Below are positions 4,907 to 9,417 of a stretch of 34,194 bases of DNA, piece after piece. The translations under genes were made by a program, and so were the position numbers. Position 1 is the first letter of the stretch; every line of letters starts with the position of its first letter. Origin of the DNA: a virus (lineage: Duplodnaviria; Heunggongvirae; Uroviricota; Caudoviricetes); IMG/VR virus record IMGVR_UViG_2541047826_000010; one strand, written 5' to 3'. The notes under the pieces were generated by a model. The model was not told the DNA's origin and did not search any database. It was given only the letters and a program-made list of their open reading frames with translations.

Positions 4907-6073
4907 TTAAACCCCTTTGACAACGTCAGCATTGACCTGTGGAACCCCGATTTCAGCGGCCAGATTCATGGCGGCTATCACCAGGTTACTGACGGCCAGC
5001 GGATACAGCAGGCTGACCATATTTTTACGATGACTTCCCGGATTGCTCAGGCGGGCACGTATGGCATCCACTGCGCTGGCGTCCATAATGTCCGTCAGTT
5101 GTTTACCGGCCCGTTGCAGTTTGAACGTCAGAAATTCTTCAAGGTTATTGTCCAGAGGCAGAAGTTCGACCACCTCACAGCGCTGAACGACTTCACGGAC
5201 TTCCATATTGCGTTCAGACAGTTTTGTCGCCAGTTCCGGCTGGCCAATCAGCACGATGGACAGCAGTTTTTTGAAACCGGACTCCAGCTCAAAAAAGCGT
5301 TTGAGGTGTTTCAGTGTCGGAATGGGCAGACTGTGGGCCTCCTCAATCACCAGAACGTGGCTGAACCCCGCCTGGCTGCTGTCTTTCAGGACGCGATGCA
5401 ACTGGCGAAAGCGGGCGTCCTGACTGCGTCTGATGCTTTCCAGTGGTGCGATGGTACTGATAATGGCTTCGGCAATCGCTGCTGCCTTCAGGGTTTTCCC
5501 TTTCACATCGTTGTCTTCCATAGCGATGATGTATGGCTCGATAACAATTACCGGCGCATTCTCGCGGTTGATACGTTCAGTCAGGTCGCGGCGCAGCGTG
5601 GATTTACCCGCACCGGACTCACCGATGACGGCCATAAACCCACCATGACGGGCTGTCTGGTACAACGCCTCACGCACGTAGCGAATGTCCGGGGTGGTGA
5701 ACACATCATCAGAACCCTGCATGGCTTCGTCGGCGAACGGGTCACGGAAAAGACCAAACGCTTTTTTGGTTGCTGGAAATAACACCTGTTTTTTGAGTAA
5801 CATATTCTCTTCCTCACTGAGGCTCGTTTTATCTGTGGTACCCGCTGTACGGGGCGTGGCCGCGCCCTGTACAGCATCAAAACTCTTCGTTGTATCAATC
5901 CCCTGACTTTCCAGCCAGGACGCAAGACGCCGGCGCACTTCTCCGGGGCTGGTGCGGGGCCACGCGTTATGATTCACAATCTGGGCCAGCGTGGCCTCAG
6001 AAACATCGACAGCTCTCGCCACCACCGCCTGTGGAATACGGGCCTCTTTCAGTTGCTGCTTCAGTACCAGCAT
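4907..6073 (-). CDS. transposition ATPase (AAA+ family; MuB/TniB-like functional analogue)
   Basis: Walker A GESGAGKST and Walker B HVLVIEEAH; N-terminal HTH-like region; start moved to ATG 6073 (SD GAGGAGGG) 10 nt after the transposase stop. Confidence 0.8.
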   Translation of the reverse strand: MLVLKQQLKEARIPQAVVARAVDVSEATLAQIVNHNAWPRTSPGEVRRRLASWLESQGIDTTKSFDAVQGAATPRTAGTTDKTSLSEEENMLLKKQVLFPATKKAFGLFRDPFADEAMQGSDDVFTTPDIRYVREALYQTARHGGFMAVIGESGAGKSTLRRDLTERINRENAPVIVIEPYIIAMEDNDVKGKTLKAAAIAEAIISTIAPLESIRRSQDARFRQLHRVLKDSSQAGFSHVLVIEEAHSLPIPTLKHLKRFFELESGFKKLLSIVLIGQPELATKLSERNMEVREVVQRCEVVELLPLDNNLEEFLTFKLQRAGKQLTDIMDASAVDAIRARLSNPGSHRKNMVSLLYPLAVSNLVIAAMNLAAEIGVPQVNADVVKGV

Positions 6074-6083
6074 GTTTCCCTCC

Positions 6084-7853
6084 TCAGTTGCCGTTAACAA
6101 TGCTGATAACACTGCTGCTGGCCGGTGTGGTCAGCGTGGCCATGACTTCATCCAGTGCGGCTTCCGGTACGCCGTCCGGGTACTGTGCCGTTAACTGGCG
6201 GTAATGTTCCGGCGTCCAGGTAAGGCCGTCGGCGCTGAACTTATCGCGCAGGGCTTTCGCGGCCTCCACATGAGTCATGGGACGTTGTTCAGTGCGCGGC
6301 CCGCGTACGTCAGAGGCCTGACCACGCTTCGGCATATAGGCCGGAAGTGTGGTGTCGTCGATATGTTTATACGGGTCAAGCCGCCCGCCGAACGGCAGCG
6401 CCTTCGCCTTGCGTGCGGCGGCTGCATCTGCGGCGTTGTCTGTACCGGTAACCAGCGCTTCGGTTTCTTTTGCCGCCATCTGTGCCGGGGTTTCCGGCAG
6501 GGCTTTGTAACTTTCGCCAAATACCGCCGCGCCTTCAGCAAAGCCAAACTCGTTCTTTCTGACCTCTTCGACCAGGAAGAACGTCTCGTGGCCGTCCTCA
6601 CCGGTCAGAACCACCTGTGCCACATCGCTGCGCCATGGGTTACGGGTAATCATCAGTTTTTCACCAACCAGTACGCCCGGTACCGTTGATACGTCAAATT
6701 CAGTGCCCCGGAACGAGACACGAAGTTTTGGCGTGACTTTGCGGAGTTCTGGTGCCGCCACAGCCAGTTCATGACATACCTCAACGGAAGGCGCTTTTTT
6801 CAGCTGCTCAGCAGTAATCTTCAGCCAGATATCCGTGCGGGTTTTACCGTGGCGGCTGTGAACAGCCGTGGCGTTAAAGTGGCTGCGCCATTTCGCGGCC
6901 AGCGCGTTGAGTTCTTCCAGACTGTGAACCGGCCGGAACTTCAGACCCGGCTCCAGCTTGCGTTCGATAATGTCTCGCGCCTTTTCCACCTGTCCGGTGG
7001 CGCGGGCGTTATGCGGCTTGTGCGCTATCAGGTCGATGCCCAGTGAGCGGCACATGTTTTTCGTCATACCCGCGGTGTTTGCCGAGCCGGGGTCGAGATA
7101 GAGTATTTTTGGCACGCCGTGCAGCACGTCTGCGCCGCCACGCTCCTGCATGGCGTTGATAAGCACAGAACACAGGTTCTCACCTGATTCCGCGCCCGTC
7201 ACATACTCAACGTAAATCCAGCCGCTGGCATGGTCGGTAATCTCGTAACTCCACACGCGGTCACTGGCGATACGGGCAAGGTTAGCGGGCTTGTTCTTGT
7301 AGAACTTCGCGCTGTCCATCACCTGCAGCCCTTTATGTCCATTGCTCAGGTAGTAAAGCGTGCAGAGTGAGGCGTCAATCTGCCAGACATGATTGGGGTG
7401 CAGACTGGCCACTTCGGTATGCGGTGCAGGAGCATCCAGTTGTTCCGGGTGCAGGCCATAGTTACGCAGAGCACGGCTGATGGCATCTTCAGACAACGGG
7501 AAAAACTCACCGGTGGTTTCATCTGTTCTGCCTGCGGTGATAAAGCCGTTAGCCCGCAGGGTTTCCACTGCATCTGCGATGGAATAGAGGCGCTTACCGT
7601 TCTTGCGGGTGGCCTCACGCAGTGTGGCAGATATCAGCGCGGCTTCGTCGCGGGTCAGGGCGCTGCGTCCGGCATCAGCGCGTTTTTTGCGTTTATCAGT
7701 CACAGAGACCTCCTTCAGCCTGCGCAGCAGAGTGGCGCGGGACATGCCAAGTTCAGCACAGGCAGCGTCGTATATTGCACCGCGTTTACCATGCCCCGCG
7801 TCACGTGCCGCGCGGGCGACATAAACCAGTCGTTCAGTCAGGGCAGCATTCAT
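6084..7853 (-). CDS. DDE transposase (integrase-core/rve fold), 589 aa
   Basis: Catalytic-core pattern HVWQIDAS ... ILYLDPGSANTA ... downstream E-containing helix; N-terminal HTH; shorter than MuA. SD GGAGG 8 nt upstream; starts 3 nt after the preceding stop. Confidence 0.85.
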   Translation of the reverse strand: MNAALTERLVYVARAARDAGHGKRGAIYDAACAELGMSRATLLRRLKEVSVTDKRKKRADAGRSALTRDEAALISATLREATRKNGKRLYSIADAVETLRANGFITAGRTDETTGEFFPLSEDAISRALRNYGLHPEQLDAPAPHTEVASLHPNHVWQIDASLCTLYYLSNGHKGLQVMDSAKFYKNKPANLARIASDRVWSYEITDHASGWIYVEYVTGAESGENLCSVLINAMQERGGADVLHGVPKILYLDPGSANTAGMTKNMCRSLGIDLIAHKPHNARATGQVEKARDIIERKLEPGLKFRPVHSLEELNALAAKWRSHFNATAVHSRHGKTRTDIWLKITAEQLKKAPSVEVCHELAVAAPELRKVTPKLRVSFRGTEFDVSTVPGVLVGEKLMITRNPWRSDVAQVVLTGEDGHETFFLVEEVRKNEFGFAEGAAVFGESYKALPETPAQMAAKETEALVTGTDNAADAAAARKAKALPFGGRLDPYKHIDDTTLPAYMPKRGQASDVRGPRTEQRPMTHVEAAKALRDKFSADGLTWTPEHYRQLTAQYPDGVPEAALDEVMATLTTPASSSVISIVNGN

Positions 7854-7856
7854 TGG

Positions 7857-8771
7857 TTATGCCTCCAGCCCGTTAATCTGTGGCGTCGGCTCAGTCAGCC
7901 ATGAAGGCGCGGCATTGCCTGTTGGCTCATCCGGCAGGTCAAATGTGGAGCGCAGGCTACGCGCTGTGCTTTCCAGTTGACAGACCAGGCCTGCCATGAA
8001 GTCTCTGGGGGTATCAATCATGTTTTCAGCACAATATGCGCACAGCGTCTCAAAAGCGCTGGACAGTCGAACGGCGATAGCAGATTCCGCCTCAACCGCT
8101 AATGCTGTCACTTCCGCCCGCAGCTTCTTAACCTCTTCATCAGGCTCAGGCGGCTGAATACGGGATTTCTTCTCCAGTCTGGTGGAGAGTGAGTCTATTT
8201 TTTCATTTTTGTCAGCGAGTACGCGCTGTTGTGCTGCGTTGGTTTCGCGCGCTTCGCGCAGGGCCTGACGCAATTCACGTACTGACATGCGATCAACGTC
8301 GTCAAGCGTCAGGCCGGCAACTGTGCCGCCGTCGGCCAATTCATCAAGTTCTTCATTATCCAGAACCATCAGGTCGTACAGTTTGGCTTTCCCCAAAACG
8401 CTCAACGTTGAGCGTTTTGTTGGCTCATCACCTTCTCCCAAAAACTTCATACTGGCTTGCATCATGCGGCGAGCAACTTGTGGTGCAAGTCCGAGTTCAT
8501 TTTCTAAAATGTTTGTAAAATCACCGTGTGGCTCATTTTCTTTTAAGATGATCAGCCGCTTACCCGCTTCCAGCATAGATTCAGCACTCTGCGCCATATA
8601 AAAACGTGCTTCGTGAACAATGCGATCACGTTCATAAGGCAGTCCATCACCAAACTGCTGCATAATTTCCATGCGATGCTGTGTCATAGCGTTCAAATTG
8701 ACATTGATGTTATCTGACAGCGGAACCTCAACATTCAGTTCAGTGTTAACGGGTGATTTGGTGCGTCCCAT
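7857..8771 (-). CDS. conserved-looking early protein with central coiled coil, unknown function
   Basis: 304 aa, strong SD AAGGAG 7 nt upstream; inserted between the regulatory genes and the transposase. Confidence 0.6.
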   Translation of the reverse strand: MGRTKSPVNTELNVEVPLSDNINVNLNAMTQHRMEIMQQFGDGLPYERDRIVHEARFYMAQSAESMLEAGKRLIILKENEPHGDFTNILENELGLAPQVARRMMQASMKFLGEGDEPTKRSTLSVLGKAKLYDLMVLDNEELDELADGGTVAGLTLDDVDRMSVRELRQALREARETNAAQQRVLADKNEKIDSLSTRLEKKSRIQPPEPDEEVKKLRAEVTALAVEAESAIAVRLSSAFETLCAYCAENMIDTPRDFMAGLVCQLESTARSLRSTFDLPDEPTGNAAPSWLTEPTPQINGLEA

Positions 8772-8781
8772 TGATTACTCC

Positions 8782-9090
8782 TTACAAACGACTACCTGAA
8801 ATAACTCGTTGGTTGATTTCGTTAATACGATCCTGTGCACGCGCCATCTCGTGACTGTGAGCCATGGCGATCTGTAGTAACTGGATTCCCGGTGCGAAAC
8901 GTCCGTTCTCTAATTTCATGGCCAGTCCCTCTTCAATAAGGGTATTAAGTGCTCGATTGATATTCGCCGGGGACTCCCCCAGGGCTGATGCCAGTTCACC
9001 GTTAGAAACACCGTTCAGAGCATGACCGCGTAGAGCTTTGAGTACACGTAGGATGCGGGTCCCAGAACTGGAAATATTTACTTTACTCAT
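8782..9090 (-). CDS. winged-HTH DNA-binding protein (IclR/MarR-like N-terminal domain), putative regulator
   Basis: GTRILRVLKAL...GVSNGELASALGESPANINRALNTLIEEGLA is a typical wHTH; start uncertain (ATG 9090 chosen; the ORF track extends to 9153, overlapping ner). Confidence 0.5.
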   Translation of the reverse strand: MSKVNISSSGTRILRVLKALRGHALNGVSNGELASALGESPANINRALNTLIEEGLAMKLENGRFAPGIQLLQIAMAHSHEMARAQDRINEINQRVISGSRL

Positions 9091-9142
9091 GTCACATTTC
9101 CATTTTTGCAATATGTGATAACCTGTTGCATATGTGGAAAAT

Positions 9143-9331
9143 TTATGCCGCATTTGACGTGGGTTTTAATCCCAGTTTTACGGCAATTTCATGGGCTTTG
9201 CCGTAACGAGCTTTGGTCTGTCCATTGAGAACACGATAGACCTCATTGCGGCTGTAGCCGTGTTCTTCGGCCCAGCGGGTAAACGTGATACCACGCTGAC
9301 GGAAGAGATTTTTAACTTGTTCGGAAGTCAT
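9143..9331 (-). CDS. ner: Ner-like DNA-binding protein (HTH), first gene of the early operon
   Basis: 62 aa; RGITFTRWAEEHGYSRNEVYRVLNG...AHEIAVKLGLKP resembles the Ner/Nlp HTH arrangement; SD AAGGAG; divergent from the repressor, as Mu ner is. Confidence 0.65.
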   Translation of the reverse strand: MTSEQVKNLFRQRGITFTRWAEEHGYSRNEVYRVLNGQTKARYGKAHEIAVKLGLKPTSNAA

Positions 9332-9378
9332 TGTTGTCTCCTTTGTTGATGCAATGATGTTTGTTTTATATGTGATAG

Positions 9379-9408
9379 ATTATGAGAACTATTGTTCTCA
9401 TTGTCAAT
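9379..9408 (-). promoter_or_regulatory. early promoter with embedded operator palindrome
   Basis: On the minus strand TTGACA (plus 9403-9408) and CATAAT (plus 9379-9384) separated by 18 bp; the spacer carries the 20-bp near-palindrome ATGAGAAC-TATT-GTTCTCAT (9382-9401). Confidence 0.5.
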
Positions 9409-9417
9409 GAGGTTTAT

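Follow-up and report, generated by a model that had tools for sequence, protein, structure and literature searches.

A palindrome in the early-promoter spacer of a BcepMu/B3-type transposable prophage of Escherichia coli as the probable single operator of its immunity repressor

A perfect 20-bp palindrome, ATGAGAAC-TATT-GTTCTCAT (positions 9382 to 9401), fills the spacer of the early promoter, pE, of the prophage analyzed here. We put at roughly 85% the probability that this palindrome serves the immunity repressor as its single operator, through which pE and with it the operon of the ner-like and transposase genes would be silenced. The evidence is comparative: across related elements the spacer sequence covaries with the helix-turn-helix (HTH) of the neighboring repressor, and the half-site seen here adjoins close homologs of this repressor. 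Both observations support the operator reading put forward in a preliminary description of this DNA.

The window, by which we mean the whole stretch of 34,194 nucleotides that was analyzed, is assigned by its sequence to the BcepMu/B3-type, Mu-like transposable prophages of E. coli. Positions 8700 to 10000 are 100% identical to prophages of strains IAI39 and CE10 and of ∼100 further complete genomes, and the early genes are 83% identical to those of Escherichia phage PhiKM (classified as Bcepmuvirus). Of 5426 complete E. coli genomes, ∼600 carry a prophage of this family, among them ST131, ABU 83972, IAI39, and CE10. Transcription from pE on the minus strand would first reach a gene for a 62-aa Ner-like protein (9143 to 9331; TIGR04111, the BcepMu gp16 family, 94 bits) and then, in the same early operon, genes for an IclR-type wHTH protein (8782 to 9090), a DUF3102 protein (7857 to 8771), an rve transposase (6084 to 7853), and an AAA+ B-like protein (4907 to 6112). 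The immunity repressor gene lies divergently on the plus strand (9418 to 9843; 141 aa counted from its GTG) and encodes an N-terminal XRE-type HTH; 86 bp (9332 to 9417) separate it from the Ner-like gene. This layout, in which the repressor and gp16-family genes diverge from a short intergenic region and genes for a DUF3102 protein, an rve transposase, and an AAA+ B protein come next, is that of a B3/BcepMu module. The Ner-like protein is 71% identical to ORF17 of phage B3, matches only HTH_31 in Pfam, below threshold, and gave no match to solved structures at E ≤ 0.1. Its gene is a homolog of BcepMu gp16 and B3 ORF17 that is Ner-like by position, with no demonstrable place in the Mu Ner family. 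No terminator-like site was found in 8700 to 9900 and no known RNA family (Rfam) in 7800 to 9900. Downstream of the repressor gene come two genes of unknown function (9840 to 10826, phrog_10002, and 10908 to 11498); PhiKM-type prophages have a DNA adenine methylase gene on the opposite strand in their place.

A consensus scan of 8700 to 9900 returned one promoter-like site, the minus-strand, sigma-70-like pE, 48 nt upstream of the ATG of the Ner-like gene. Its −35 hexamer TTGACA (9402 to 9407), whose position is kept in relatives, and its −10 hexamer CATAAT (9379 to 9384) are separated by a 17-nt spacer (9401 to 9385) and match the consensus at 11 of 12 positions. The palindrome, with 8-bp arms at 9382 to 9389 (ATGAGAAC) and 9394 to 9401 (GTTCTCAT) around TATT at 9390 to 9393, covers the entire spacer and reaches 3 nt into the −10 hexamer, whose leading CAT is the palindrome's outer end. 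The centers of its core half-sites, GAGAAC (9384 to 9389) and GTTCTC (9394 to 9399), are 10 bp apart, so the site has the two-fold symmetry and the half-site spacing of about one helical turn that are looked for in an operator of an XRE-type repressor. The preliminary description was exact as to the sequence and coordinates of the palindrome, and its placement of the palindrome between TTGACA and CATAAT of an early promoter is borne out both by the promoter's consensus match and by the retention of this position in ∼60 relatives.

We found no second copy of the operator in the 34-kb window at up to 3 mismatches, in agreement with the earlier statement that no second full operator is present. 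At up to 1 mismatch, the 8-mer half-site occurs 26 times in the window against 24 expected. The GAGAAC half-site that had been pointed out inside ner does exist (9225 to 9232), but it carries no meaning because half-site counts match the chance frequency; it falls in codons for a conserved V-L-N, and PhiKM has the same half-site together with a different operator. Perfect palindromes with 8-bp arms are themselves common in 34 kb (12 matches at 7 distinct sites, versus 6.7 ± 3.2 in shuffled sequence), and the argument therefore rests on the placement of this one and on comparison with relatives.

For this comparison, 80 loci from Gamma- and Betaproteobacteria were retrieved using the Ner-like protein as the anchor. 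In most of them, read in the orientation of ner, the spacer of a sigma-70 promoter is 17 nt long and ends ∼47 nt before the ner ATG, and a palindrome has its center on this spacer. Palindrome scores of at least 6 were obtained for the spacers of 34 of 59 distinct promoter regions, compared to 2.9 (maximum 10) with shuffled spacers. Under the scoring used, ∼40% of the related promoter regions have no clear spacer palindrome, and some of these contain imperfect ones, such as GGTGAG..CTGCACC. The pE of phage B3 consists of TTGACA, the spacer GGTGCAATATTTGGCAC, and CACTAT, and a near-palindrome, GGTGCAA-TATT-TGGCACC, lies inside this 17-nt spacer. When the six homologous loci that share the half-sites of the window were aligned as DNA, the GAGAAC/GTTCTC core was invariant, while the center and the arm flanks varied. 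The central 4 bp among homologous operators, read in the sense of ner, are AATA, TATA, TTAA, TAGA, TTTG, and CAAA; such variability fits an operator because uncontacted DNA is expected at its center.

The spacer palindrome follows the repressor. The GAGAAC..GTTCTC loci, one from Serratia (L053) and five from Pseudomonas (L023, L025, L041, L052, and L054), hold exactly the six repressors that are closest to that of the window (identities are 59 to 67% in five, over the N-terminal ∼70 to 100 aa, and 47% in L023, over 139 aa). The next-closest repressors (≤45% identity) have other palindromes in their spacers. In the HTH alignment, recognition helices and half-sites pair throughout the family: GVSRE[MI]WG[KR]YER with GAGAAC, GVKKLAQLKYEQ with GGTATC, GAS[RY]KSQ[IL]RWEK with [GA]TCCCAT, GASKR[ST]QIGWEQ with GTGCCA, and GVARNTIYNWMA with TTGCTCA. 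Single-linkage clustering of the repressors at 50% identity merged most of the family, and the HTH alignment and a Mantel test were used instead, with the promoters of L014 and L052 assigned by position. Operator similarity correlated with repressor HTH similarity (r = 0.63), a value reached in 0 of 5000 permutations, with phylogeny handled by permutation alone. When IMG/VR was searched with the exact palindrome, 34 matches were obtained, and 21 of them have a repressor homolog (47 to 100% identity) within 700 bp. All 21 of these lie in a promoter spacer (TTGAC[AG]/TTGCAA ... CAT[AC][ATC]T), and 6 have no Ner homolog nearby. Because the palindromes adjoin repressor homologs, in some cases without Ner, the operator travels with the repressor.

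Binding of the palindrome by the Ner-like (Cro-like) protein, either instead of the repressor or together with it, could be expected from the position of the Ner-like gene as the first one downstream of pE, and Cro and CI share operators in lambdoid phages. The preliminary description had suggested that the Ner-like protein may bind as well. We consider this very unlikely, however, and the suggestion went unsupported for want of covariation: operator and Ner similarity were correlated at r = 0.10 only (P = 0.057). PhiKM and two further loci (L003 and L004) combine Ner proteins of 85 to 88% identity with unrelated palindromes, while Pseudomonas loci in which Ner is only ∼70% identical have the GAGAAC site, and on six viral contigs the operator and repressor occur with no Ner homolog. 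The conserved motif ATC[AT]TTGCAT downstream of the −10 hexamer makes the stronger candidate for Ner binding.

This motif, in the wider form ATC[AT]TTGCA[TC], is present in 36 of 75 distinct loci from Enterobacterales and Pseudomonas and lies in the window at 9349 to 9358 on the minus strand (ATCATTGCAT). It is located in the 5′ untranslated region of pE transcripts, 26 to 27 nt upstream of the ner ATG and just before the Shine-Dalgarno sequence, at the same offset in loci L003 to L082. Because it tracks the conserved Ner-like gene and not the variable repressor, it is a candidate for a Ner-like operator or for a translational element.

RefSeq/PGAP places the start of the repressor at ATG 9382, inside the palindrome and in frame with the repressor open reading frame, which gives a product of 153 aa with an extension of 12 codons (9382 to 9417, plus strand) upstream of GTG 9418. 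In six of six GAGAAC-type relatives, the alignment begins at the equivalent of GTG 9418, which is ATG in L053, TTG in L041, and GTG in the other four. L053 has a stop codon immediately upstream of this start, and in the other five loci the ATG of the palindrome is out of frame; a 1-nt insertion unique to the window (CAATGAGG versus CAA-GGGG) puts it in frame. A Shine-Dalgarno sequence, GAGG (9409 to 9412, plus strand), precedes GTG 9418 by 5 nt, and relatives have GGGG or GGTG there. Counted from this GTG, the N terminus can be matched residue by residue to P22 C2 (residue 5 to C2 residue 4) and to B3 ORF18, for which a GTG start at the same position is likewise annotated. The starts of the homologs, the L053 stop, the reading frames, and the GAGG thus favor the view, already expressed in the preliminary description, that GTG 9418 is the real start: it is the conserved one, and the extension from ATG 9382 is probably untranslated. 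The comparison corrects the repressor start codon given in RefSeq. RefSeq/PGAP starts are inconsistent across the repressor family: the ABU 83972 homolog (L084, 713 to 1171, 152 aa) is annotated from a TTG within ner, a window-type repressor (L001, 3683 to 4144, 153 aa) from the ATG of the palindrome, and an AR_0085-type repressor (L085, 826 to 1173, 115 aa) from the conserved position.

The reading frames also bear on the proposal that the main role of the palindrome is that of an RNA hairpin, part of a long leader of the repressor transcript that starts at a distal promoter; there it would mask the spurious AUG 9382 or modulate translation or stability. Folded as RNA, 9370 to 9425 reaches −13.9 kcal/mol (z = −2.3), and a long leader would agree with the distal repressor promoter of Fc02 lysogens and with a weak distal site at 9115 to 9143 in the window. 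A hairpin, however, has no need to track the recognition helix of the repressor, variation at the central 4 nt and in the arm flanks is what a protein site would show, and in relatives the AUG is out of frame, so that there is nothing to mask. The proposal seems to us improbable as a main function, and a hairpin role would be a secondary effect at most. Least probable of all is that the palindrome arose by chance, as the near-chance rate of perfect 8-bp-arm palindromes across the window would permit, or serves a host factor, given its placement and the family-wide enrichment of spacer palindromes on the one hand and, on the other, operators that differ between prophages of one host, E. coli, and a sequence that does not look like a LexA box.

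If the palindrome is the operator of the repressor, a repressor dimer would place one HTH on each GAGAAC half-site, both of which should point to the same side of the helix because they are one helical turn apart. The bound dimer would cover all 17 bp of the spacer together with the upstream end of the −10 hexamer and so exclude RNA polymerase from pE, leaving the ner-like/transposase operon silent in the lysogen. In Fc02, a phage of the B3 family, a temperature-sensitive RepC derepresses pE, with transcripts that start at ner according to transcriptome sequencing (PMC9936078). Because transcription toward the repressor must start at or cross the operator, the operator probably also autoregulates the repressor; whether the repressor promoter overlaps pE or is distal, occupancy of the operator would limit repressor synthesis as well. 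Since there is a single operator only, the cooperative multisite logic of lambda or Mu would be absent.

No repressor promoter was found on the plus strand by the consensus scan of 8700 to 9900. When relatives were scanned with looser criteria, the candidates that emerged were all weak, and some did not agree from locus to locus. One plus-strand candidate, ATGATG-16-TGaTAGATT (9351 to 9381), overlaps pE; the other, GTGATA-17-TGgAAAATT (9115 to 9143), is distal, in the ner/IclR intergenic region. Sites like the latter occur at the same place in PhiKM and in Brenneria, Xenorhabdus, and Photorhabdus relatives. The repressor of Fc02 lysogens is transcribed from a distal promoter, pC1 (PMC9936078), to which the site at 9115 to 9143 may correspond. 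By this analogy, the repressor promoter may be either a weak one overlapping pE or a distal one between ner and the IclR-type gene.

Both weak candidates are overlapped by TATGTG[AG] heptamers, four of the window's six copies of which cluster in a 310-bp regulatory region in the same (plus) orientation, at 9112 to 9118, 9131 to 9137, 9369 to 9375, and 9415 to 9421. The first two, which include an exact repeat of 10 nt (ATATGTGATA), are found between the ner stop codon and the IclR-type gene's start, where they form part of an imperfect inverted repeat of 20 nt. The third is at the predicted transcription start of pE, and the fourth overlaps GTG 9418. These heptamers are candidate sites of the Ner-like or the IclR-type regulator.

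The N terminus of the repressor matched the Pfam families HTH_31 (30.5 bits, cutoff of 27) and HTH_3 (23.0 bits, cutoff of 23), the N-terminal domain of P22 C2 (E = 9e−5), and the 434 repressor (E = 0.02), and we regard it on this similarity as homologous to the DNA-binding domains of P22 C2 and 434. Over 97 aa it is 36% identical to B3 ORF18 (E = 1e−15). A Peptidase_S24 domain was absent at E ≤ 0.01 in Pfam and was likewise absent in NCBIfam and PHROGs; induction therefore would not proceed by LexA-like autocleavage.

The closest known arrangement is that of B3 and Fc02 (Beetrevirus), where repc (ORF18), overlapping promoters pC2 and pE, and the ner-like ORF17 have the same gene order and orientation as in the window. 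RepC of Fc02 is a genetically proven immunity repressor that controls pE (PMC9936078). The window differs in operator specificity (GAGAAC versus GGTGC[AC]A in B3), in being a Bcepmuvirus-like element of E. coli, so that both host and virus genus are different, and in the genes between ner and the transposase gene. No operator definition for the repressors of B3, Fc02, BcepMu, or D3112-type phages was found in the literature searched, to which the B3 genome paper did not belong. With P22 C2 and 434 cI the window repressor shares a homologous HTH domain, a two-fold symmetric operator in the range of 14 to 20 bp with a variable, uncontacted center, and presumably repression by occupation of the core promoter. 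In contrast to them, it lacks an S24 autocleavage domain and has one operator instead of tripartite OR/OL sets, and its phage is transposable, not lambdoid. With neither an S24 domain nor adjacent cooperative operators, the repressor is not of the lambda CI/LexA type. The module resembles Mu c/Ner in its logic, in which the early promoter of ner and the transposase genes would be shut off by a repressor encoded divergently from ner. Mu c has a winged-helix DNA-binding domain related to MuA and binds several direct-repeat sites in three operators (O1 to O3) with the help of integration host factor (IHF), whereas the window repressor has an XRE HTH and a single palindrome. Judged by these different DNA-binding folds, the module is not of the Mu c/Ner family.

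The locus holds at least four immunity types within E. coli, which differ in palindrome and repressor alike: the window type (ATGAGAAC-TATT-GTTCTCAT), the PhiKM type (TGCTCATAATTATGAGCA), the ABU 83972 type (GGTGCAG-ATTA-CCTCACC), and the AR_0085 type (TATCCCAATAATGGGATA). Heteroimmune E. coli prophages have their mosaic junction exactly where the −10 hexamer meets the operator: homology to the window ends at 9383/9384 in 468 complete genomes of this species, and a different palindrome and repressor beyond this junction were confirmed in four sequenced examples. Three variant E. coli copies (99.1 to 99.5% identical over 9300 to 9520) have as their sole polymorphism within the 20 bp a T9390C change, in the central spacer. 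We lean toward the view that the spacer operator and the repressor form a swappable specificity cassette, in which, across B3/BcepMu-type prophages, at least 15 palindrome/recognition-helix pairs would have been fitted into one fixed promoter frame.

A second palindrome of the window, more unusual than the operator, lies inside the DUF3102 gene (8394 to 8419; CAAAACGCTCAACGTTGAGCGTTTTG). It is 26 bp long, perfect, and without a spacer, and it sits at a fixed codon position (aa ∼118 to 126). At the homologous position, at least 17 distinct distant relatives from Gamma- and Betaproteobacteria have a palindrome of 24 to 32 bp; these include L002 (at 2695), L005, L006, L016, L017, L024, L027, L046, L051, L060, L061, L071, L080, and others. 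The outer CAAA...TTTG is conserved and a central CG is present in most, yet the inner bases vary and stay self-complementary through compensatory substitutions, as in CAAATGTGCCAGCGCTGGCACATTTG and CAAATTCGTCGACGTCGACGAATTTG. The encoded peptide also varies (KRSTLSVL, KRQALAVL, NVPALAHL, KAKTFSLL, and NSSTSTNL). The window contains this palindrome only once, Rfam gave no match, and the literature searched yielded no function for DUF3102. The pattern strongly suggests that a cis-acting element, either a protein-binding site or a hairpin, is embedded in the coding sequence; by analogy with parS within parB, it is perhaps the DUF3102 protein's own site.

The mechanism proposed for pE is itself textbook promoter occlusion by a phage operator that overlaps the core promoter. 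The finding is thus ordinary in kind, and what may be new in detail is that this operator has been assigned and that operators and recognition helices pair throughout the family. It supplies a concrete, testable candidate operator for a prophage family found in about 600 complete E. coli genomes. Immunity in this family would rest on one palindrome in the early-promoter spacer that is exchanged together with the repressor, and immunity groups would then be predictable from sequence. The family would offer natural orthogonal repressor-operator pairs; if the cassette reading is true, these would amount to a natural panel of such pairs and to a readable recognition code of the HTH.
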